From the NCBI GenBank assembly GCA_965275905.1, contig CBDHYJ010000054.1:17497-81496 (forward strand): DNA of 64,000 nt. The letters run 5' to 3'. The notes under the pieces were generated by a model. The model did no database searches. It was given only the letters and a program-made list of their open reading frames with translations, and was not told where the DNA came from. Below are positions 11,370 to 59,449 of this stretch, in pieces (the stretch's first letter is position 1; every line of letters begins with the position of its first letter). This DNA is from Hyphomicrobiales bacterium. GTDB taxonomy: Bacteria > Pseudomonadota > Alphaproteobacteria > Rhizobiales > JAJFHC01. A program made the position numbers and the translations under genes.

Positions 11370-12075
11370 ATGTCAACGGTGCCTGATCGGATTGGGGCCG
11401 CGGCTGATCTGCTCAAGGCCGCGCGTCTGGAAAACCGGCTCGTCGACGGCATTCCCGAAGAGATCAGGCCTCGCGATCTTCGCGAGGCCTACGCCGTTCA
11501 GGACCGTCTCGTCGAGATGCTCGGATGGGATGTCGGCGGCTGGTTCTGCGCCTGCACGAACACGGCAATCCAGGAACTCCTGAGCCTGGACGAGCCGTAT
11601 TACGCCCGGCTCTTCAGCGACTACATCTTTGCAGAGCCGGCCGTCCTGAATGCGGCCGACTATCCGCCGATCGTGCTGGAATGCGAATTCGGCTTTCGCC
11701 TCGGTCGAGACCTTCCGAGCCGGCCCGAGGCCTACAGCAGGCTGGAGGTCGAAGACGCGATTTCCCATGTCCACCCGACCATCGATCGTGGCCGGCCATC
11801 TCAAGGACTGGCCGAGCCAGGATGTCTGGTCGGTCATTGCCGACAACGGCACCGACGGCGCGCTGGTCTACGGCGATGGGATCGAGGACTGGAGGCGCCT
11901 GGACCTCGTCGCAACGGCTGTCACGCTCGACATCAACGGCGAAACGGTGCGAACGGGCAGTGGCGCGAACGTGCTTGGGGATCCGCTCGAAGCCTTTGTC
12001 TGGCTGGCCAATGCCCGGTCCCGCGACGGTGACGGCCTCAAGGCCGGTGACATCCACAATACCGGGACGGCGACC
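11370..12075 (+). pseudogene. 2-keto-4-pentenoate hydratase-family gene, frameshifted and 3'-truncated (fused to next gene)
   Basis: The hydratase-like sequence runs in the frame of ORF 11370 to ...ISHVHPTI. It continues in the frame of ORF 11650 as IVAGHLKDWPSQDVW...LKAGDIHNTGTAT, with the shift near 11780-11790. The expected last ~25-30 aa are absent. The end coordinate is approximate. Confidence 0.7.
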
Positions 12076-13191
12076 AGCTATGGCAATGCGGGCGTCATTA
12101 CGTCCGGGTCCTGCGTGCCGCAGTCGCTGCCGGGGCTCTGGAAGAGCATTCCCGGTATGCTGTTCGATCCGGACGGCCCCGCGTCGATCCGGCCCGGCTA
12201 TTTCCCGAAGTTCCTGCCATGGGCGATTAGGTTCCTCAAGGCCGGTCGCGCCGACCGCGTCGCGGGCATCGCAAGAGCTATTTCGGCGCTTAATCGCCCT
12301 AGCACCGACATCTATCGCCGTCACCTGTCGGGCACGAGTGGTGAGAACCTGCTCAGGGAGTCCATTTACATTCACGCCTATCGTAACGGCGCGGATGCCG
12401 GCCTCGACGGCATCGGGTGGCGGCTGCGGGCAGAGAACGGAGCTGAGCTGGAGCGCATCGGCGGAGACGAACTGCGCCGCCTCGAACCATGCCTTTCGCG
12501 CGATTATGACGCGGCGATCCTGATCAGGGATCAGGGACGGTCGGTCGCGCCGGGCAGGCTGGGAACGGTGCTTGCAGCGAAGGTGCGTCAATCCGGTGGC
12601 GAGATCGTCGAGGCGGGCGTGCAGCGGATCAGGCCGGAGCAGGAGGATTGGGCGGTTGATACGGATCGCGGCACATTCCGGTCGTCGCAGGTTGTCGTGT
12701 CGGCTGGAGTCTGGTCCCGGCCGCTGCTCGAGCCGCTCGGCTACCGCGTGCCGCTTGAAGCGGAACGGGGCTATCACATGATGTTCCGCAACCCCGGCGT
12801 CGAACTCGGCAATTCGATCTTTGATGCCGATTTCAAGTTCGTCACCAGTTCCATGGACCGCGGCATCCGCAGTGCCGGAACGGCCGAGTTCGCCGGCCTC
12901 GATGCGCCGCCCAATTTCCGGCGCGCGCGCATTTTCGCGAGCCTCACGAAACGCATGATGCCGGACCTGAACACCGAGGATACGGAGGAATGGATGGGCA
13001 TCCGGCCGTCGTTCCCCGACAGCTTGCCCTGCATCGAGGAGGTGCCGGGTCATCCGGGCCTTTTCGCGGCTTTCGGGCACAGCCATTTCGGTCTTACCAT
13101 GGCGCCGATGACCGGGCGGATCATCGCCGATCTTGCCACCGGCACATCGCCCAATCTCGATCTTGCGCCCTACAGCAGCGCCCGGTTCTAG
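12076..13191 (+). pseudogene. D-amino-acid dehydrogenase-like FAD oxidoreductase lacking its N-terminal FAD-binding fold
   Basis: From SYGNAGVITSGSCVPQSLPGLWKSIPGMLFDPDGP to ...GHSHFGLTMAPMTGRIIADL it is colinear with DadA-type enzymes from about residue 45 onward. No GxGxxG segment exists in any frame upstream. It is joined in frame to the hydratase remnant. The start coordinate is approximate. Confidence 0.7.
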
Positions 13192-50865: not shown

Positions 50866-51888
50866 CTAGACGGCCCACTCGAACACGTAGCCGGAGATGA
50901 GCGAGCCGGTGAGGGCGAGCACGAGGTAGAGCAGAAAGGGCTTGGCCTTGAGCACGGGCACGACGGCGAGCGCGCCCCAGATGCTGACCACCGCGCCGGA
51001 AACGAGAAACGCCATGGCGGCACCCTGCGACATGCCGTTGTCGATCAGGCCGCGCGTCAGCGGCAGCGCCGCGTAGCCGTCGATATAGGCGGGCGCGCCC
51101 ACGAAGACGGCAGCCGGGATGGCCCACCACGTCTCCTCGCCAACGTAAGCCGCCAGCGACCCGGGCGTCAGCGCTGCGTTGAGCGCGTACTCCGCCATGA
51201 AGGCCGGGATCAGGCAGACCAGGATCAGCCGGGTCGTGGCCCAAGCCTGGCGCGCGAAGGACCGGCGGCGTTCTTTCGTCTTCCAGACGCGGGCGTCGAA
51301 TGTCGCCGGCCCGCAGCACCGCGCCGTGCTGAGCTGCCGGGCGAGGCGGTTGTCCCGCAACGCGTCCCTGGCCCAGTCCCGGCGCGCGAACAGCGCGGTC
51401 ACGGCGCCGCCGAACAGACCCAGGCCGAGGGCCGCAACCGTCTTGCCGAAAGCGAAGGCAAACCCCAGCGTTGCCGCCGTGGTTGCCAGCATGGCCGGGT
51501 CGGTGACGGGCGACGACAGCCAGAACGCCATGATCGGAGCGAGCGGCACGCCCGCCACCAGAAGTCCCGCCATCAGCGGCAGCACCGCGACACCGCAGAC
51601 CGGCGTGATGGCGCCGATCGCCGATGCCGCCACGATCGTGTGCAGCATGCGCCCTTCGAAGGCGCGCGCGATATGTGCGTCCGCGCCGCTGGCGATGATC
51701 CAGGCCGCGAGCAGGATGCCGGGCACCACGACGGGCGCCACCTTCACGAGCCCTATGAGCGAGAAGCTGATCGCCGCCAGAAGGTGCCCCGGCCAGAGGC
51801 TGCCGGCGACAGCGAGGATGACGGCGCCCACGAGCAGCCACGGGACTTTCGTCCTGGGAGCGTCTGTCTGTGTCGTCTGGTCTGTCAT
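50866..51888 (-). CDS. predicted permease (YraQ/ArsP_1-like, PF03773-type)
   Basis: Polytopic membrane protein with AITPVCGVAVLPLMAGL and LSSPVTDP motifs. The start is taken at MTDQTTQ. Confidence 0.7.
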   Translation of the reverse strand: MTDQTTQTDAPRTKVPWLLVGAVILAVAGSLWPGHLLAAISFSLIGLVKVAPVVVPGILLAAWIIASGADAHIARAFEGRMLHTIVAASAIGAITPVCGVAVLPLMAGLLVAGVPLAPIMAFWLSSPVTDPAMLATTAATLGFAFAFGKTVAALGLGLFGGAVTALFARRDWARDALRDNRLARQLSTARCCGPATFDARVWKTKERRRSFARQAWATTRLILVCLIPAFMAEYALNAALTPGSLAAYVGEETWWAIPAAVFVGAPAYIDGYAALPLTRGLIDNGMSQGAAMAFLVSGAVVSIWGALAVVPVLKAKPFLLYLVLALTGSLISGYVFEWAV

Positions 51889-51931
51889 GGGCGCCAAATC
51901 CTCCGGCCGCTTGCAAAATAGCGGCGCTTTT

Positions 51932-51943
51932 TTCATAAATGAA
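51932..51943. promoter_or_regulatory. candidate LysR-type operator (TTCAT-AA-ATGAA)
   Basis: A perfect short palindrome in the 90-bp divergent region between the permease and the LysR gene. The T-N11-A style is consistent with LysR boxes. Confidence 0.3.
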
Positions 51944-51978
51944 ACGAATAGATTGGGAATCAACTATTGGAGAATCGA

Positions 51979-52830
51979 ATGCCACAGCTTGACAGTGATC
52001 TCCTGCGCACATTCGTGGCCGTCGCCGAAGCGGGCAGCGTGACCGACGGCGCCACCGGGATAGGCCGGTCGCAATCGGCCGCCAGCCTTCAGATCAAGCG
52101 CCTTGAAGGCGTGCTCGGGCGTGACGTGTTCGAGCGCCACGGGCGGGGCGTCGTCCTGACGGATGCCGGCCGGCATCTGATGCCGGTCGCGCGGGATGTC
52201 GTCGCGCGCCTCGACGGAGCGCTGCGCGAGATCGCGTCCGATGGCCTTGAGGGCAGATTGAGGCTCGGCATCCCCGACGACCACGGCCAGGCGAAGTTGT
52301 CGGAGATCGTCGGCGCCTTCGCACAGGCGCATCCCTTGGTCGAACTCGAGGTGACCTGCGCGCTCAGTGCCGAGTTCCCGCAAAGCCTGTCGAAGGGCCG
52401 GCTCGACCTTGCGGTCTACGAGGTCGAGGCCCCGGACGCCGGCGAGGAGATCCTGTTCGAGGATCCGACCTGCTGGGTCGCGTCTCCCTATCGGGATTTC
52501 TTCGGCTCCGATCCGCTGCCGGTGGCGCTGTTCGACCGCACCTGCTGGTGGCGCGACGTGGCGCTGGCTTCGCTCCAGGCGCGCAACAGGCCTTATCGCG
52601 TGGTCTATTCCAGCCAGAGCGTGGGCGGCGTCATGGCCGCCGTCGAGGGCGGCATCGGTGTCGGCCTGCTGGGCCGGTCCTCGGTCGGGGAGGGGCTGAA
52701 GGTTCTGGGGCAGGATGAGGGTTTCGGCCCGACGCCCGTGTCCAAGCTCGTCGTGCGCGCCCGCGACGGGGCGGACACCGAGCTGGTCCACGCCATGAAA
52801 GCCGCGATCCGGTCAGCGTTCCTGCGCTGA
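51979..52830 (+). CDS. LysR-family transcriptional regulator
   Basis: Contains the LRTFVAVAEAGSVTDGATGIGRSQSAASLQIKRLE HTH. ATG 51979 follows GGAG. Confidence 0.85.
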   Translation: MPQLDSDLLRTFVAVAEAGSVTDGATGIGRSQSAASLQIKRLEGVLGRDVFERHGRGVVLTDAGRHLMPVARDVVARLDGALREIASDGLEGRLRLGIPDDHGQAKLSEIVGAFAQAHPLVELEVTCALSAEFPQSLSKGRLDLAVYEVEAPDAGEEILFEDPTCWVASPYRDFFGSDPLPVALFDRTCWWRDVALASLQARNRPYRVVYSSQSVGGVMAAVEGGIGVGLLGRSSVGEGLKVLGQDEGFGPTPVSKLVVRARDGADTELVHAMKAAIRSAFLR

Positions 52831-52944: not shown

Positions 52945-53415
52945 TTAATTTAGATCGTTAACCAACATCATCCAAACAAGATAAATTGCAAATGCTAGCC
53001 AAATGACAACGAAGATAGCGAGTATTGCAACCGGCCCGGTAAGCGCCGTTCCGGGCTTTATTTTAATTTCAGCTGCCGGAAAAAGCTGAGGAAACCCATG
53101 TTCCGTTGATAAATCTGCATCTACTTCGCGGGTCCGATTTGCCCAATATTTCTGCCACGACCTAAGTCGAGAAACCGTCTTGAGGCTAAGCAGGGAGAGA
53201 GTAAACCCAACAACAGAAATGATCAGCATTCCCCAAACGGCATTGGGGAACTCGTTAAATGTCCTCCAGGATAAGCCAAAGGCCGCAAGAAGCGCTAGCT
53301 GGACAGCCGACAGATAATTGAACCTGGCCCAAAGTGCATCATTCTCTTGGCTCATTCGAACGATCAACATTTTTAGCACTTCAAGTTTTCGGTCTGCGTC
53401 TTCTCGATATTGCAT
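52945..53415 (-). CDS. orphan 156-aa membrane protein in an AT-rich islet
   Basis: AT-rich codon usage, unlike neighbouring genes. The product has a helical N-terminus, a two-TM hairpin (YLSAVQLALLAAFGLSW / AVWGMLIISVVGFTLSLLSL), a ~50-aa loop, and a third TM (GPVAILAIFVVIWLAFAIYLVWMML). Confidence 0.5.
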   Translation of the reverse strand: MQYREDADRKLEVLKMLIVRMSQENDALWARFNYLSAVQLALLAAFGLSWRTFNEFPNAVWGMLIISVVGFTLSLLSLKTVSRLRSWQKYWANRTREVDADLSTEHGFPQLFPAAEIKIKPGTALTGPVAILAIFVVIWLAFAIYLVWMMLVNDLN

Positions 53416-53645: not shown

Positions 53646-54110
53646 TCAGATTGCCAGGTCGAGCCGCGGTTTCCAGAACGGGCGGAACAGCTCGATCTTG
53701 GGGCAGCGGTTCATCACCACCTTCAGCCCCGCATTCTCGGCCAGCTCAGCCGCGCGGTCATCGTAGACGCCGATCTGACCCCAGAGAACCTTGGCGCCGA
53801 TCGCGATGGCCTGTTCGGCGATGCCATAGAATTCTTCCCTGGGCCGGAACACCTCGACCATGTCGACCGGGCGATCGATCTCTTCCAGGGAATGATAGAC
53901 CCGGATGCCGCGGATTTCGGTCAGCCGCGGGTTCGGGTTGACCGGCAGGATCTCGTACCCCGTTTCATGCAGCACCCGGAGCACGCCGTAGCTGAACTTG
54001 GTCTTGTCGTTGCTGGCGCCGACCATGGCGATGGTCTTCACCGAACGGAGTATGTCTGCCAGGTATTCCGGCGTGTAATCGTAAAGGCGGTCAATATCGG
54101 CTTCGGGCAT
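53646..54110 (-). CDS. CoA-binding domain protein (YccU/YneT type)
   Basis: Contains KTIAMVGASNDKTKFSYGVLRVL, VDMVEVFRP and AKVLWGQIGV. Its ATG directly abuts the ferredoxin stop (TAGATG). Confidence 0.85.
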   Translation of the reverse strand: MPEADIDRLYDYTPEYLADILRSVKTIAMVGASNDKTKFSYGVLRVLHETGYEILPVNPNPRLTEIRGIRVYHSLEEIDRPVDMVEVFRPREEFYGIAEQAIAIGAKVLWGQIGVYDDRAAELAENAGLKVVMNRCPKIELFRPFWKPRLDLAI

Positions 54111-54479
54111 CTATGCTTCCTTCGGCGTGGCAATGTCCGCTTTGAGCTCGTGCGGCTCGAGCGGATCGAGAAACGGGTTGCGATAGAGCTTGTCGTGACT
54201 TTCGACGCCGATCTCCAGCGTGCAGTCGGAGACCGGCCGCGCGATGCAAAGCAGCACGTATCCGTCGTTGATCTGGCGATTGTTCAGCGCCACCTGCCGG
54301 CGCTGGTCGACGTCGCCTGAAGTCAGTTTGGCTGCGCAGGTGATGCAGCCGCCATACTTGCACCCGTAGGGCAGATCGACGCCCTGTTCGCGCAACGTGT
54401 CGAGCAGCGGGCGGCGGGCATCGACCGCGTAGGTCTCTCCGCCGCGGTTGGCGATCGTTATGGTCCGGGTGTCCGTCAC
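54111..54479 (-). CDS. plant-type [2Fe-2S] ferredoxin
   Basis: The Cys spacing is C-x4-C-x2-C-x29-C (YGCKYGGCITCAAKL...VLLCIARP). The GTG start overlaps the upstream TGA as GTGA. Confidence 0.8.
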   Translation of the reverse strand: MTDTRTITIANRGGETYAVDARRPLLDTLREQGVDLPYGCKYGGCITCAAKLTSGDVDQRRQVALNNRQINDGYVLLCIARPVSDCTLEIGVESHDKLYRNPFLDPLEPHELKADIATPKEA

Positions 54480-55843
54480 AGCCAGATATCGCTCGTGCAG
54501 TCGCCGCCGGGATAGCGGGTTTCGTGGCAGCGGCTCGGCCCGTTCGGTTCCTGGCCGAAATCCACCATGAAGTCTTCGTTGATCTTCATGCCGCCGTTTT
54601 CGACATCGCAATCGATCATCACCATCACGCCGCCCTGGGTGCGGATGTCGGGATAGAACTGGTTGTCCCAGGTCGAAAACAGCGAGGTCGTGACATAAAG
54701 CCGTCTGCCGTCGAGGGAGAGCTGGAACATCTGCGGGCCGCCGGCCACCCTGACGCCGTTGACCTCGGGCGCCTTGCCCAGGAGCCCTCCCATCCAGACC
54801 TGGCCGGTGAGCTTGGGATTGTGCGGGTCGGTGATGTCATACTGGCGCATGTCGCCATGCAGCCAGTTGTTGAGATAGAGGTACCGGTCGTCCATCGACA
54901 CCAGAATTGCCGACATGACGCCGGGAATCGGTATCGGCCATTCGGGGTGCGGCTCGTTTTCCACGTCGATGATCTTTTCCCACTCCCATGTTCCGGCTTC
55001 GGACTTCCAGAAATGGATCACATTGGCGCTGAGCGCCGCGCCGCAGAAGCCGTGGCTGCTGTCCGGGTCGTGGTGGAACTTGACCTCAAGCGGGATCAGC
55101 CCGTCCTCGCCAAGATACTTGGTCTCGACGGGAACGCGCTTTTCGAAGTCCCAGAAGTGCAGGCGGCGGCCGTATTTGAGGTGGCCCACCTCTTCCAGGT
55201 CGAAGCCCGGCATGAAGGTGTTCGGGGCCGCCCATTCGGAACTCACCATCACGTTGTGGCGCGGCTGATACCAGAAATCATAGCCGAACGGGATGTCGCC
55301 CATCGAGGTCTCCCAGCGGCCCACGATCTCAAAGTCCTTGTTGAGATGCAGGTAGCCGCCTGGCGCTTCGCCCATGGCGTCGCCGAGGAACGAGATGATG
55401 ATCTCGGACCCGAGGCAGTGGACGGTGTGCGGTCCGGAGAGGTTGGTTTTCGCCTTGATCTCGGCGCCGTCGATCACCTTGTGCAGGCGCGGCGCACGAG
55501 GGTCGGTGGCCGTGTCGACGACATGGATGTTGTTCGAGCGGACACCCGGCACGAGCAGGTACTTGCGCGACATGGAGGCGTCGTCATGACATGACGAACA
55601 GGCATTCCAGCCCATGTGGTGCAACTCGTCCCCGATCCCCGGCATCTCCAGCCGGTGAATCACCTGTGAATAGGTCGGACTGTCCGGATCCGCGTCGATC
55701 GTCGCCAGATAGTCGGGCTTCTGGATGCCCGTGCCGGTGTAAATCGCGATGGAATAGAGGAGTTTTTCGCGTGGCGCCTTGATCGCCTCCGCCGGGCTTG
55801 CATATCCCGGGCCGCAGCACGGCGTCTCACCATTACCACTCAT
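54476..55843 (-). CDS. selenium-binding protein 56 family (SELENBP1/MtoX methanethiol-oxidase family), no signal peptide
   Basis: 455 aa, colinear with human SELENBP1 as I recall it. Shared blocks are CCGPGYASPAEAIKAPREKLLY, DELHHMGWNACSSC, GYDFWYQPRHNVMVSSEWAAPN, LHGDMRQYDITDP, GGPQMFQLSLDGRRLYVTTSL and RYPGGDCTSDIWL. Confidence 0.9.
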   Translation of the reverse strand: MSGNGETPCCGPGYASPAEAIKAPREKLLYSIAIYTGTGIQKPDYLATIDADPDSPTYSQVIHRLEMPGIGDELHHMGWNACSSCHDDASMSRKYLLVPGVRSNNIHVVDTATDPRAPRLHKVIDGAEIKAKTNLSGPHTVHCLGSEIIISFLGDAMGEAPGGYLHLNKDFEIVGRWETSMGDIPFGYDFWYQPRHNVMVSSEWAAPNTFMPGFDLEEVGHLKYGRRLHFWDFEKRVPVETKYLGEDGLIPLEVKFHHDPDSSHGFCGAALSANVIHFWKSEAGTWEWEKIIDVENEPHPEWPIPIPGVMSAILVSMDDRYLYLNNWLHGDMRQYDITDPHNPKLTGQVWMGGLLGKAPEVNGVRVAGGPQMFQLSLDGRRLYVTTSLFSTWDNQFYPDIRTQGGVMVMIDCDVENGGMKINEDFMVDFGQEPNGPSRCHETRYPGGDCTSDIWL

Positions 55844-55890
55844 GTCGTTTTTCTCCGGCCAGCGTGATTTTCGACTTGGCTTCCAATATA

Positions 55891-55915
55891 GTTTGTCCTA
55901 TTCCATGAGACAAAC
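55891..55915. promoter_or_regulatory. candidate IclR operator GTTTGTC-N11-GACAAAC
   Basis: A perfect 7-bp inverted repeat in the AT-rich divergent region between the SBP56 operon and the IclR gene. Confidence 0.35.
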
Positions 55916-55933
55916 GTCTGTAAAGTGATAAAA

Positions 55934-56695
55934 ATGCATCTCGATCGACTTATTGCTGTTTTGGAGACCGTGGCCATTGCCGGGCGGGCGGTGTCGCCAA
56001 CGGATGTGCAGCGCGTCACCGGACTTCCGCGTCCGACATGTTACCGCCTGCTTCAGACCCTGGCCGAACATCGTCTGCTGGATGAGCCTGACGGGGCGTC
56101 GCGGTACCTCATTGGCGAGCGTCTGAAGCGGATTGCCATCCTGGGCCAGCCGGATGTGGATGTGTGCCTGGCTGCCGCGCCGATACTGAGGGAAACGGCC
56201 ATTGAATTCGGCGAAGCCGTCTTTCTCTCCAGGTTCCGGGACAGAGAAGTCGAGATCACCCACGTGGAAACGCCCATTGACGCCGCGCGGTCCTTCATTC
56301 ACCCCGGCCTCGGCAACCGGCCCATGCACGCCTGCTCATGCTCAAAGGCGATAGCCGCCTTCGCCGACGAGGCGTTTCAGAGTGAAATCCTCGCAAGCCC
56401 TTTGCGCGCCTACACGGACCAGACCAAGACCCTGCCGGGCGAGGTTGAGCGGGAGTTTGCCGACATACGCCAACGTGGCTATGCGGAGTGCGTCGAAGAA
56501 ATCGAAGTGGGCGTCTCAAGCGTCGCCGCGCCCATCCGCATAGGAAACCTCGGGGTTCCGTTCAGCGTCGGCGCGACCGGTCCCATCCGTCGCTTTACAA
56601 GCCGCCATCGGGAAAAGATCGGTATGGGTCTGATCGAGGTCGCCGGCCGGATCGCTGCGAACCTGCAGCTGGCCCGCGCGGGCACCTCGATCTGA
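55934..56695 (+). CDS. IclR-family transcriptional regulator
   Basis: Contains LDRLIAVLETVAIAGRAVSPTDVQRVTGLPRPTCYRLLQTL (HTH_IclR) and a C-terminal effector domain. GTG 55925 is an alternative start. Confidence 0.85.
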   Translation: MHLDRLIAVLETVAIAGRAVSPTDVQRVTGLPRPTCYRLLQTLAEHRLLDEPDGASRYLIGERLKRIAILGQPDVDVCLAAAPILRETAIEFGEAVFLSRFRDREVEITHVETPIDAARSFIHPGLGNRPMHACSCSKAIAAFADEAFQSEILASPLRAYTDQTKTLPGEVEREFADIRQRGYAECVEEIEVGVSSVAAPIRIGNLGVPFSVGATGPIRRFTSRHREKIGMGLIEVAGRIAANLQLARAGTSI

Positions 56696-56733
56696 CGGCG
56701 TACCGGGAAACAGTATTACAGGGGCCGTCAGGA

Positions 56734-57894
56734 ATGCACTCCGGCAGGGACAGCGCGTTCCGGAAGTTCAGCTTCGGAACGCAAGTGCGAAAATCTCCCT
56801 TCTCCGAAGCCGCGCTGCGCTGGGGGGCAAAGGGATTTTCGGTCTACAACCACATGTACATCCCCCGAGACTTCGGCGACCCTGTTCAGAATTTCTGGAA
56901 CCTCGTGAACGAGGCCATTCTGTGTGACGTCGCGGTCGAGCGCCAGGTCGAGATCACGGGCCCGGAGGCCGCACGGTTCACGCAGTATCTCAGTTGCCGC
57001 GATCTTTCGAAGTGCCAGGTCGGTCAGTGCAAATACGTTCTGATCACCGACCAGGATGGCGGCATCATCAATGATCCCGTTCTGCTGAAACTCGCAGAGG
57101 ATCACTTCTGGCTCTCGATTGCGGACAGCGATGTGCTGTTGTGGGCGAAAGGAGTGGCCCTGAACGCCGGCATGGACGTTCGTATCGGTGAGCCGGATGT
57201 TTCGCCACTTCAACTTCAGGGTCCGAAATCGCGCGACATCCTGCGGGCGGCGTTTGGCGATGGCCCTGCGGAGCTGAAGTATTATCGCTTCACCGAATAC
57301 GACTGGAATGGCGTGCCTCTGATCATTTCGCGGACCGGTTGGTCGAGCGAGCTGGGATATGAGATTTTCTTGCGGGACGGGTCTGCCGGCGACCGTTTGT
57401 GGGAATACCTGATGGAGGTCGGGCGGCCGTTCGGCCTCTACCCCGGGCATACCTCAAGCATACGCCGCATCGAAGCGGCGATGCTGTCCTATCACGCGGA
57501 TATGACCCTGAGGAACAATCCGTTCGAACTCGGGTTGGATCGTCTCGTCGATCTGGAGATGGAGGCCGATTTCGTCAGCAGGTCGGCCCTGACGCGCATC
57601 AGGGAAGAGGGGGTCACTCAGCTGCTCGTCGGCCTCGAGCTTGAGGGCCCTCCGCTCGCAGGTTCGAACGACGAGCATTGGCCCGTCACAATGGATGGTC
57701 AGGTTATCGGTCGGGTGACGTCCGCGATCCATTCGCCACGTCTGGAGAAAAACATCGCATTGGCGATGATGGTTCGCGAACACACAGCGATCGGTACTCG
57801 GGCGGTCGTCGATGCGTCAGGGCAATCGCGAAACTGCGAAGTCGTCCCGAAGCCGTTCTACGATCCTGCGAAATCGATCGCTGCGCGAACCTGA
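56734..57894 (+). CDS. GcvT-family aminomethyltransferase, DmdA-like (DMSP demethylase candidate)
   Basis: 386 aa. Blocks shared with Ruegeria pomeroyi DmdA as I recall it are KSPFSEAA...GFSVYNHMYIP, DVAVERQVEITGPEA, INDPVLLKLAEDHFWLSIADSD, EPDVSPLQLQGPKSRD, SRTGWSSELGYEIF, EAAMLSYHADMT and SAIHSPRLEKNIALAM. Confidence 0.75.
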   Translation: MHSGRDSAFRKFSFGTQVRKSPFSEAALRWGAKGFSVYNHMYIPRDFGDPVQNFWNLVNEAILCDVAVERQVEITGPEAARFTQYLSCRDLSKCQVGQCKYVLITDQDGGIINDPVLLKLAEDHFWLSIADSDVLLWAKGVALNAGMDVRIGEPDVSPLQLQGPKSRDILRAAFGDGPAELKYYRFTEYDWNGVPLIISRTGWSSELGYEIFLRDGSAGDRLWEYLMEVGRPFGLYPGHTSSIRRIEAAMLSYHADMTLRNNPFELGLDRLVDLEMEADFVSRSALTRIREEGVTQLLVGLELEGPPLAGSNDEHWPVTMDGQVIGRVTSAIHSPRLEKNIALAMMVREHTAIGTRAVVDASGQSRNCEVVPKPFYDPAKSIAART

Positions 57895-57961: not shown

Positions 57962-59449
57962 TCAGCTCACCGTGAACTGTCCCATCATGCCGTGGTCTTC
58001 ATGTTCCAGGATGTGGCAATGGTACATGTAGGGGTGCGTCTTTCCCGCGAGGTGATCAAACCGCACGACGATCTCGGACCAGTCGTCATCATCCAGAACC
58101 ACCATGTCCTTCCAGCCCTGCTGGTCGGGCGGTGCCGGGGCGCCTTCCATGTTCTCGATCAGGAACGAGCAGCCGTGCACATGAAACGGATGCGCGCCGT
58201 CATCGGCACGGATGCGCCAGCGCTCCCACTCCCCACGCTTCACTTCCTCGTTGATCACGTTCATGTCCATCACCGCACCGTTGATGGTCATGGTCATCGC
58301 GCCGTGCCCGCCGTGCTGGTCATGCCCGCCACCATGGCCCCCGTTCATTTCCAGCATGAAGTCGCGCGTGCGTACGATTTCCGAGGGCTTCGGGCGGACA
58401 ATCTCGGCCATCTTTTCCGGCAGCGGCGCGGTGTGCGCCGGCAGCGTCCTGTCGGGCAGCAGGGTCAGCGACGGCGCCGGTTTGCCTGAGCTGAATAACC
58501 GGTTCAGCACACTGCTGACGGGACCTGCCTCGTCGTCAAACGCGTCTTCGAACAGGGTGAGCAGGCCGGCGGGCGTGCCATCGGCCAGATCCACGACAAT
58601 ATCGCAGCGCTCCCCGGGCGCCATTTCCATTGATGTCATCTCCACCGGCGCGCTCAAAAGACCGCCATCACTGGCAATTTTGTGAAACGGCCTCTTGTCG
58701 GCAAAGGTGACGATGTAAAAACGCGCGTTGGCTCCATTGAGCAGCCGCAGCCGGACCTTTCCGGCCGGCACCGCCGCAGAGGGCGAGATGGCTCCATTGA
58801 TGATCACGGTGTCACCGAGCCAGCCGTCCTCATCGGCATCTTTCAGCGAATACACCAGACGGCCCTTCGCATCGAAGGTCCGGTCCTGAATGATCACCGG
58901 CAGGTCATCGACCCCGTAGCGGCGCGGGAGCGGCAAAGCATCGCTCAACTCGTCATCAATGATCATCATGCCGGCAAGGCCCTTGTAGACCTGTTCACCG
59001 GTCCTGCCGTGGGTGTGCGAGTGGTACCAGCAGGTGGCTGCCGGTTGCACGATCGACAATGTGGGTTGCCAGCTCTCCGATGGTGCGATTTCCAGCTGGG
59101 GCCCGCCGTCCACGTTGCCCGGCACATGCAGGCCGTGCCCGTGAATGGAAACGCCCTCCGGCAAAGTGTTGTGGTAGCTGAGGTTGAGTTCGCTGTTCCG
59201 CCGGGTCCGGATGGTCGGGCCCAGATAGTCCTGACTGATGCCCAGGGTCGGCGTCTTGACTCCGGGGGTAAAGGACCAGGCTCCGGAGCGGATCGTCAGG
59301 TCGAGCGGCTCCCCGCTGGTGCCGTCAAGGAGTGGGGGGATCGGCAAGCGGACCGGCGCGGTCCCGGCCCACGCAGGCGCCATCAGACCAGTGCTCACAA
59401 GGGCCGTGCCACCGGCTACAAAGCGCCGCCGGGAGAGGGTAAGCGACAT
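57962..59449 (-). CDS. cueO: multicopper oxidase, CueO-like, Tat-exported
   Basis: Twin-arginine signal (MSLTLSRRRFVAGG...APAWA). Copper ligand motifs are HGHGLH, WYHSHTH, HPFHVHG and HCHILEHEDHGMM. It carries a His/Gly/Met-rich insert (NGGHGGGHDQHGGHGAMTM). Confidence 0.9.
   Translation of the reverse strand: MSLTLSRRRFVAGGTALVSTGLMAPAWAGTAPVRLPIPPLLDGTSGEPLDLTIRSGAWSFTPGVKTPTLGISQDYLGPTIRTRRNSELNLSYHNTLPEGVSIHGHGLHVPGNVDGGPQLEIAPSESWQPTLSIVQPAATCWYHSHTHGRTGEQVYKGLAGMMIIDDELSDALPLPRRYGVDDLPVIIQDRTFDAKGRLVYSLKDADEDGWLGDTVIINGAISPSAAVPAGKVRLRLLNGANARFYIVTFADKRPFHKIASDGGLLSAPVEMTSMEMAPGERCDIVVDLADGTPAGLLTLFEDAFDDEAGPVSSVLNRLFSSGKPAPSLTLLPDRTLPAHTAPLPEKMAEIVRPKPSEIVRTRDFMLEMNGGHGGGHDQHGGHGAMTMTINGAVMDMNVINEEVKRGEWERWRIRADDGAHPFHVHGCSFLIENMEGAPAPPDQQGWKDMVVLDDDDWSEIVVRFDHLAGKTHPYMYHCHILEHEDHGMMGQFTVS

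Follow-up and report, generated by a model that had tools for sequence, protein, structure and literature searches.

Bacteria break down dimethylsulfoniopropionate (DMSP) mainly by a route whose sulfur product is methanethiol. Here we describe a locus in a 64,000-nucleotide stretch of genome from a Hyphomicrobiales bacterium (assembly GCA_965275905.1, contig CBDHYJ010000054.1, positions 17,497 to 81,496 of the forward strand; the whole of this stretch is called the window, and coordinates are those of the window) in which genes for an SBP56/SELENBP1-type protein, a plant-type [2Fe-2S] ferredoxin and a coenzyme A (CoA)-binding protein follow one another directly. We refer to these three genes as the triad. 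Human SELENBP1 and the Sulfolobus tokodaii protein of known structure (PDB 2ECE) share the fold and family of the window SBP56 protein and are likewise cytoplasmic and without a signal peptide; the eukaryotic SELENBP1 gene stands alone, unlike the triad, and we know of no dedicated ferredoxin or CoA-binding partner for SELENBP1 or for Sulfolobus SBP56. Private [2Fe-2S] ferredoxins are familiar from other enzymes, such as class Ia ribonucleotide reductase with YfaE and the Rieske or soluble di-iron oxygenases. By analogy with these, a small plant-type ferredoxin encoded beside a single metalloenzyme may be specific for it, although the triad differs from such systems in its lack of a reductase, its copper/cysteine beta-propeller partner and its added CoA-binding protein. 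Copper-dependent methanethiol oxidation is reported for SELENBP1.

Two bacterial enzymes of the same subtype as the window SBP56 protein have been described. The purified cytoplasmic "cluster 1" enzymes RdMTO of Roseobacter denitrificans OCh114 and RlMTO of Ruegeria lacuscaerulensis, each assayed alone, produce sulfane sulfur, but no H2O2, as they degrade methanethiol, and carry a Cys-S-S-CH3 adduct at their third cysteine during the reaction (Cao et al. 2024, PMC10936201). They resemble the window protein in their length of ∼450 amino acids, in the motifs GWNACS, HTVHC and GGDC(S/T), in their origin from marine Alphaproteobacteria and in their connection with DMSP-derived methanethiol; cysteines C82, C143 and C448 of RdMTO compare with C82, C143 and C449 in the window. 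That paper treats a single protein and does not contain the word ferredoxin, whereas the window-type gene occurs near-invariably with a ferredoxin gene and a CoA-binding gene. At 0.3 mg/ml (∼6 µM) the two enzymes removed 44 µM (RdMTO) or 111 µM (RlMTO) methanethiol in 30 min (PMC10936201), which by our own arithmetic from the published figures amounts to a very slow 7-18 turnovers in that time. Such slow turnover by the lone enzyme is compatible with, and hints at, a missing partner.

The exported member of the family, MtoX of Hyphomicrobium sp. VS and Ruegeria pomeroyi (SPOA0269), also oxidises methanethiol and in R. pomeroyi has an IclR-type neighbour, but it is a periplasmic protein with a signal peptide, and its gene shares a transcript with maturation genes of the SCO1/SenC and MauG-like types (Eyice et al. 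2018, PMC5739008). MtoX has a single conserved cysteine, in the motif TCQSPYM, in contrast to the three cysteine motifs of the window protein, which has no signal peptide and whose downstream genes encode a ferredoxin and a CoA-binding protein instead.

For SAR11, SAR116 and roseobacters it is common practice in marine genomics to count SELENBP1 (K17285) as the methanethiol oxidase of the DMSP pathway, and the expression table of one roseobacter lists adjacent "ferredoxin" and "selenium-binding protein" genes without comment. A targeted full-text literature search returned no relevant paper that brings a ferredoxin or CoA-binding partner together with a methanethiol oxidase or selenium-binding protein. 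A first-pass annotation, made from the sequence of the window alone, had proposed an undescribed, ferredoxin-coupled cytoplasmic variant of the oxidase; the cytoplasmic SBP56 oxidase has in fact been described (PMC10936201), while for the coupling to partners we found no paper. Earlier work, then, covers the type of enzyme, its place in the cytoplasm and its part in turning over DMSP-derived methanethiol. Apparently new are the almost constant association with a CoA-binding protein and with a ferredoxin from a subfamily of its own, and a recurrent link to a tetrahydrofolate enzyme that is a sister of the DMSP demethylase DmdA.

The triad and its conservation

The genes of the locus and their control region are as follows.

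54476-55843, minus strand: SBP56/SELENBP1-type oxidase, 455 amino acids; Pfam SBP56 (PF05694), 683.4 bits
54111-54479, minus strand: plant-type [2Fe-2S] ferredoxin, 122 amino acids; Fer2 (PF00111), 58.3 bits
53646-54110, minus strand: YccU-like stand-alone CoA-binding protein (CoA_binding_2), 154 amino acids; PF13380, 127.7 bits
55844-55924: divergent control region between the SBP56 and IclR genes, 81 nucleotides
55925-56695, plus strand: IclR-family regulator, 256 amino acids from a GTG start; HTH_IclR, 46.4 bits, and IclR C-terminal domain, 72.8 bits
56734-57894, plus strand: GcvT-family tetrahydrofolate-binding protein, 386 amino acids; GCV_T and GCV_T_C domains

The SBP56, ferredoxin and CoA-binding genes are translationally coupled in the window. 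At the first junction the SBP56 stop and the ferredoxin start read CTG TGA / GTG ACG, a GTGA overlap, and at the second the sequence GCA TAG ATG places the ferredoxin stop directly against the CoA-binding start. Since this TAG and ATG share a frame, one stop-codon change at 54108-54113 would fuse the two partner proteins, and a natural Fer2 and CoA_binding_2 fusion protein is on record (P0253). Another protein (P0251) resembles a degraded ferredoxin-CoA-binding fusion that has lost its cluster cysteines. The first-pass description of the layout proved accurate throughout: the 455-residue SBP56 reading frame without a signal peptide (the N-terminus being judged by inspection), the GTGA overlap and the C-x4-C-x2-C-x29-C spacing of the ferredoxin cysteines, the abutting TAG and ATG, the divergent IclR gene with a perfect GTTTGTC-N11-GACAAAC palindrome, the GcvT ATG 38 nucleotides past the IclR stop, and a convergent CueO-type oxidase gene at 57962-59449.

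To place the triad among its relatives we used a locus scan of one genome per species, with an alignment of SBP56 homologues as the query, which returned more than 591 loci; the counts given here and below cover the best 80 of them. In all 80, SBP56 is followed within 1 kb by a CoA-binding gene of the same orientation, and in 79 a ferredoxin gene sits between the two, with gaps of -3 to 104 nucleotides. These loci come from SAR11 (24), Rhodobacterales (26), SAR116 (9), Acidimicrobiia (7) and Gammaproteobacteria (3), plus other groups, and the gene arrangement noted in the window in the first pass recurs in 79-80 of the best 80 loci, and the association extends to a swapped gene order and a partner fusion. 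The swapped order occurs in a Chloroflexota metagenome-assembled genome (SBP56 77% identical to that of the window), where an IclR gene is divergent from SBP56, CoA-binding protein and ferredoxin, in that order, followed by a metallo-beta-lactamase (MBL)-fold protein and a rhodanese. Pairs of SBP56 and ferredoxin genes occur in Thioalkalivibrio, Marmoricola and Paracoccus seriniphilus (SBP56 68-72% identical), and on another contig a ferredoxin 53% identical to that of the window is encoded 5 nucleotides downstream of SBP56. We conclude that the three genes form a real functional unit, conserved across phyla and through permutation of gene order.

The SBP56 proteins of the 80 loci are 86-93% identical to that of the window, and their pairwise identity is at least 80% (mean 87.6%) across Alphaproteobacteria, Gammaproteobacteria and Acidimicrobiia (L001-L080). 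This is well above taxonomic expectation and implies that the cassette has spread horizontally in recent times, that constraint is very strong, or both; one copy of the triad is carried by a conjugative Phaeobacter plasmid. The 90%-identity cluster that includes the window SBP56 protein has 8,591 members, and SAR11 and SAR116 genomes carry this SBP56.

The SBP56 protein

The Pfam SBP56 match spans residues 9-455 of 455, so that the N-terminus MSGNGETPCCGPGYASP leads directly into the conserved core, and residue 14 aligns with residue 13 of the Sulfolobus tokodaii structure 2ECE (407 bits over residues 14-453). Inspection of the first 45 residues revealed no hydrophobic or twin-arginine segment; by this inspection the protein is cytoplasmic, with no room for a signal peptide. 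The motifs GWNACS, HTVHC and GGDCT start at residues 78, 139 and 446 and contain C82, C143 and C449, and their histidine and cysteine residues are invariant in 18 homologues. The protein is not a periplasmic MtoX, because it reaches 150 bits with the NCBIfam MtoX equivalog NF052453, far under the cut-off of 650. By shared motifs, rather than by computed orthology to RdMTO, it is assigned to the cluster 1 type of methanethiol oxidase, and its oxidation of methanethiol is predicted by analogy with the assayed enzymes that share these motifs. A 604-residue protein (P0001) that appeared to be an SBP56 fusion was rejected as an over-extended start call.

The ferredoxin and the CoA-binding protein

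The ferredoxin has cyanobacterial and plant ferredoxins as its best PDB matches, and narrowly misses the TIGR02008 (fdx_plant) model with 81.0 bits against a cut-off of 81.15; its similarity to YfaE and to oxygenase reductase domains is weak. The GTG start is supported, because orthologues align from residue 2 onwards. The signature CxYGGCxTCAA, in which YGGC replaces the usual residues, and a C-terminal GVESHDxLYxNPF tail are kept from Alphaproteobacteria to Chloroflexota and Actinomycetota, and by these features the protein belongs to a small, distinct subfamily with an extra C-terminal tail. Just 21 representative clusters among 1.84 billion representative proteins reach E <= 1e-30 to it, its own 90%-identity cluster comprises 1,657 sequences, and in every case checked the subfamily adjoins SBP56. 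No SBP56-ferredoxin fusion was found among the best 150 ferredoxin relatives in the same protein set.

The closest PDB match of the CoA-binding protein is the Klebsiella YccU-like structure 2DUW (116 bits), followed by PH1109 and TT1466, and its putative binding of CoA is deduced from this similarity and from its domain. The protein has an extra, conserved C-terminus (NRCPKIELFRPFWKPRL; FRPFWKPRL).

The GcvT-family protein is not DmdA

The first-pass annotation had read the GcvT-family protein, for which a 100% identical 386-residue protein is on record, as a DmdA-like demethylase. The two share the GcvT fold, and the window protein scores 273 bits to Pelagibacter DmdA (PDB 3TFH). The DmdA equivalog NF009133 is its best-scoring named family, at 373.3 bits against a cut-off of 410; the family as a whole scores 370-377 bits with this model, compared with 525-681 bits for true DmdAs (those of Phaeobacter, Marinovum, Antarctobacter, Pelagibacter 3TFH and L076). 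A distance-based neighbour-joining tree (200 bootstraps) gives the window family a clade of its own at 99%, outside that of the roseobacter and SAR11 DmdAs, which are monophyletic at 100%; a common superclade at 97% encloses both groups. The window protein is 36-40% identical to true DmdAs, while roseobacter and SAR11 DmdAs are 43-49% identical to each other. Both types occur within the species Phaeobacter inhibens, on plasmids of different strains.

Residues W171, E178 and Y180 of DmdA bind folate and contact DMSP (PMC7487153 numbering). The tryptophan, glutamate and tyrosine are kept in the window protein (GWSSELGYEIF, against GWSKQGGYEVY in 3TFH), but they do not discriminate DmdA because they are also present in non-DmdA relatives. 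Phylogenetic placement thus did not bear out the DmdA reading: with a score below the cut-off, a position outside the DmdA clade and a well-supported clade of its own, the protein was rejected as DmdA and its family is, on sequence grounds, a distinct sister of the DmdA lineage.

Links between this family and the triad recur, in no fewer than five arrangements. Its gene follows the IclR gene in the window and in locus L001 and, as a subclade of 63% identity, in Acidimicrobiia, Gammaproteobacteria and a roseobacter; in Stappia and a Rhizobiales genome it and SBP56 are immediate divergent neighbours; and it lies downstream of the triad in other loci, with or without a hydratase and a CoA ligase. 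It also occurs apart from the triad. The hydratase and CoA ligase that accompany it belong to equivalogs other than DmdD and DmdB.

Two further loci bear on GcvT-family proteins. On a Marivivens plasmid (L094:3980-9077) a GcvT gene scoring 360 bits with the DmdA model heads a row with an AMP-binding ligase, an acyl-CoA dehydrogenase and a gene annotated dmdD; because a sub-cut-off protein heads such a cluster, the curated DmdA threshold may be too strict for working demethylases from other clades. Elsewhere (L099:8311-9930 and 11707-12837) a non-triad GcvT homologue, 81% identical, lies near a BCCT-family transporter and a MetE-like gene. The BCCT family imports betaines and DMSP, and this context fits a role of the GcvT protein in the metabolism of osmolyte methyl groups.

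The IclR regulator and the control region

The regulator reached no NCBIfam equivalog, the best being BhcR with 95 bits against a cut-off of 350, and an in-frame ATG at 55934 is an alternative to its GTG start. A divergent IclR gene stands beside the triad in 27 of the 80 loci, none of them from SAR11, and also in Chloroflexota. An IclR gene lies directly upstream of R. pomeroyi mtoX too, in an operon induced by methanethiol and DMSP (PMC5739008).

The GTTTGTC-N11-GACAAAC palindrome at 55891-55915 is unique in the window, where 0.01 chance matches are expected. A search upstream of SBP56 in the 80 loci, allowing two mismatches or fewer, found no match to the whole palindrome, which we therefore rejected as a conserved operator. 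A shorter palindrome, AGACAAACGTCT at 55908-55919, next to the iclR start, is conserved in relatives: L001, L013 and L032, whose IclR proteins are of the same type (60-84% identical), keep ACAGACaTTTGTCTCAT, which is the 12-bp palindrome AGACAnnTGTCT. The longer palindrome's left half, within AGACAnnTGTCT, is common to these three loci and its right arm is not kept. Loci with a second IclR type, 41-58% identical to that of the window, share another inverted repeat, TTCTCATAT...ATATGAGAA. A promoter-like site directed toward SBP56 (-35 TTGTCT, -10 TATATT; 55913-55885, minus strand) has its -35 element inside the palindrome.

Pathway context in other genomes

On the Phaeobacter inhibens plasmid pP30_b, a divergent IclR gene precedes SBP56 (93% identical to that of the window), ferredoxin, CoA-binding protein, rhodanese and an MBL-fold protein scoring 367 bits to the persulfide-dioxygenase part of Blh, and the row continues with an enoyl-CoA hydratase (PRK08139 equivalog), an acyl-CoA synthetase (PRK08162) and a GcvT-like protein 78% identical to that of the window. 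A hydratase of the PRK08139 equivalog lies directly upstream of SBP56 in 24 of 24 SAR11 loci, a rhodanese gene follows the triad in 14 of the 80 loci, and in L076 a true DmdA (525 bits) is encoded 2.3 kb from the triad. This context fits a pathway in which methanethiol, once released by CoA-thioester steps, is cleaved by SBP56 and the resulting sulfane sulfur is handed on. Of the link to DMSP demethylation drawn in the first pass, the general association stands, in that the triad is repeatedly found elsewhere among DMSP-demethylation-like and sulfane-sulfur genes; its specific form does not, the GcvT protein not being DmdA and the window being without dmdB, dmdC and dmdD.

Several further arrangements were observed in the course of this comparison. 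In SAR11 the triad stands in a long co-directional row (L018:364-12551, with the same order in L020-L022, L026, L028, L030, L033 and L035). Its 5′ part encodes an EgtB-like protein (FGE-sulfatase and DinB_2), an EgtD-like histidine methyltransferase, an S-adenosylmethionine-dependent methyltransferase and a weakly GbcA-like Rieske oxygenase alpha subunit; the middle a kinase-like protein, a cytidylyltransferase-like protein, the enoyl-CoA hydratase and the triad; and the 3′ part a second CoA-binding paralogue (141 amino acids), a 153-residue protein without a family, a dimethylglycine-dehydrogenase-like protein and electron transfer flavoprotein beta. Genes of thiol-histidine type thus lie near the methanethiol oxidase in SAR11.

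A DUF2182 membrane protein is encoded after the SBP56-ferredoxin pair of Paracoccus seriniphilus (L082:6773-7576). DUF2182 and DUF1326 genes are found directly upstream of a dmdB-like acyl-CoA synthetase and true dmdA in Marinovum (L091:1-1374) and directly upstream of true dmdA in Antarctobacter (L092:1540-2950), and one record labels DUF2182/DUF1326 "involved in DMSP breakdown". Plasmid pMaD9 of Marinovum algicola (L091:2992-6625) encodes a true DmdA (681 bits), an alcohol dehydrogenase and an SBP56 of a second type, 39% identical to that of the window and without a ferredoxin, an arrangement by which DmdA is linked to another SBP56 subtype as well.

Neighbouring genes in the window

The remaining genes around the locus are as follows.

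57962-59449, minus strand: CueO-like multicopper oxidase, convergent; Tat-like N-terminus MSLTLSRRRFVAGG
52945-53415, minus strand: 8xMP membrane protein
51967-52830, plus strand: LysR regulator
50866-51963, minus strand: ArsP/SO_0444-like permease

The multicopper oxidase was considered as a part of the system and rejected, since it is exported, as its twin-arginine translocation (Tat)-like N-terminus indicates, and its adjacency to the triad is not conserved. The 8xMP, LysR and ArsP-like genes were set aside for the same lack of conserved adjacency elsewhere. The presence of copper-related genes beside a copper enzyme is suggestive, though they are not kept beside the triad in other genomes.

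Proposed mechanism and alternative explanations

We consider it probable that the locus is a cytoplasmic three-component module that oxidises methanethiol (C1-sulfur). The first-pass annotation had proposed that the oxidase uses the ferredoxin and the CoA-binding protein; a conserved gene unit is what we find, and their action as partners is inferred from gene context. SBP56 would be the catalytic subunit, converting methanethiol to formaldehyde and sulfide or sulfane sulfur. The ferredoxin would pass single electrons to or from the Cu/Cys active site, either carrying two electrons from the formation of the Cys-S-S-CH3 adduct to an O2-dependent C-S cleavage or keeping the metal site reduced, and its effect would be fast turnover without cytoplasmic H2O2. 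The CoA-binding protein may present CoA as the acceptor of persulfide sulfur (CoA-SSH) or, alternatively, couple the oxidase to the CoA-thioester steps that release methanethiol. The divergent IclR protein would control the operon through an operator overlapping the -35 region. The GcvT protein, a paralogue of DmdA, would most likely act before methanethiol is released, using tetrahydrofolate to demethylate a DMSP-like sulfonium or other methylated compound. The main alternative, capture of the C1 unit on tetrahydrofolate, we consider less likely than this demethylase role.

A number of observations weigh against the three-component module, and several of them speak for a self-sufficient SBP56 whose neighbours are passengers of a mobile cassette or serve other enzymes, such as Rieske or other oxygenases or those of CoA metabolism. 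RdMTO and RlMTO degrade methanethiol alone, both in vitro and in E. coli (PMC10936201). L080 is the sole locus of the 80 without a ferredoxin, and more distant SBP56 genes also lack one (72% identical in one genome, where SBP56 stands alone, 63% in Rubrobacter, 54% in a haloarchaeon and 41% in Phyllobacterium); the counts describe the best-matching 80 of the more than 591 loci. The cassette looks mobile, given its identity of at least 80% across phyla and its occurrence on a conjugative plasmid, and in SAR11 a Rieske oxygenase gene four genes upstream could be an alternative user of the ferredoxin. The pairwise distances of the three proteins correlate (mirror-tree r = 0.81, 0.68 and 0.70; Mantel p = 0.001), which favours a partnership but is expected for any co-inherited neighbours. 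The locus encodes no ferredoxin reductase, and a search of the window found no dmdB, dmdC, dmdD, hydratase, CoA ligase, rhodanese or persulfide dioxygenase, so that the link to a pathway rests on other genomes. The promoter-like site is the sole one in 4.8 kb, a count no better than chance. Even so, a self-sufficient enzyme with passenger genes appears decidedly unlikely to us. Passengers would hardly be kept in the streamlined genomes of SAR11, and the association outlasts both the permuted gene order of Chloroflexota and the divergence of the ferredoxin to 53% identity. The ferredoxin, moreover, is of a distinct subfamily with a conserved tail and lies beside SBP56 wherever checked, a nearby Rieske gene is absent from most of the lineages that carry the triad, and the isolated enzyme is extremely slow. 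The same slow turnover with methanethiol in vitro might instead mean that free methanethiol is not the substrate, and that the ferredoxin drives the reduction of another small sulfur, selenium or CoA-bound compound, such as methaneselenol or a CoA thioester or persulfide. The family is named for selenium binding, a CoA-binding partner is present in all 80 loci, and a low-potential plant-type ferredoxin is a typical electron donor. We regard this as very improbable, given that enzymes of this type make sulfane sulfur from methanethiol and form the Cys-S-S-CH3 adduct (PMC10936201), that MtoX (PMC5739008) and reportedly human SELENBP1 oxidise methanethiol, and that the neighbouring hydratase and CoA-ligase genes fit a pathway releasing it.

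The role of the GcvT protein is a separate matter. It could be a partner that traps C1 units, passing the formaldehyde-level carbon from C-S cleavage to 5,10-methylene-tetrahydrofolate, with no part as an upstream demethylase. The GcvT-like domains of dimethylglycine oxidase, sarcosine oxidase and trimethylamine N-oxide (TMAO) demethylase capture C1 units in this way, and the TMAO demethylase domain is the second-best family of the window-type proteins, at 218-236 bits compared with 145-165 for true DmdAs (170 for that of L076). Formaldehyde made by an oxidase inside the cytoplasm burdens the cell, and the glutathione-dependent formaldehyde dehydrogenase near the SBP56-ferredoxin pair of Paracoccus seriniphilus suggests that its disposal is needed. 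Linkage to the triad in at least five arrangements points the same way, particularly in L096 and L097, where the two are directly divergent with no other pathway gene between them. We nevertheless think a C1 trap rather unlikely, because the closest relative of the family is the methyl transferase DmdA, whose reported DMSP-contacting tryptophan it retains; because only 12 of the 80 triad loci have the gene; and because 2 of the 4 close homologues with context examined lie elsewhere in the genome. In Phaeobacter P88 the gene stands with those for an acyl-CoA synthetase and an enoyl-CoA hydratase, while the surrounding 6 kb hold no SBP56 gene, and this looks like an arrangement of the dmdA/dmdB/dmdD type.

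Returning to the three-component module, a stronger form of it would make the most widespread methanethiol oxidase of the surface ocean, that of SAR11, SAR116, roseobacters and marine Acidimicrobiia, an obligate three-protein enzyme, with electrons shuttled by the ferredoxin at the Cu/Cys site, sulfur removal as CoA persulfide or gating by the CoA-binding protein, and handling of the methyl or C1 carbon by the sister of DmdA. We put this forward as possible but doubtful.

Implications

The triad is a real system and is abundant in the environment. The fate of methanethiol sets how marine organic sulfur is split between assimilation, oxidation and loss as gas. If the partners are needed, the reaction in the cell may differ from that of the textbook oxidase in its electron acceptor, in H2O2 and in whether its product is sulfide, sulfane sulfur or CoA persulfide; the very low rates in vitro would be explained, and gene-based surveys would gain two marker genes. 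Should the obligate three-protein enzyme prove true, assays of lone SBP56 would have recorded only an impaired side reaction, marine methanethiol turnover would have to be measured afresh for its stoichiometry, its products and its dependence on oxygen, and SAR11 would obtain sulfide from DMSP by this route. The sister family of DmdA, for its part, represents an uncharacterised and abundant tetrahydrofolate enzyme tied to methanethiol chemistry.

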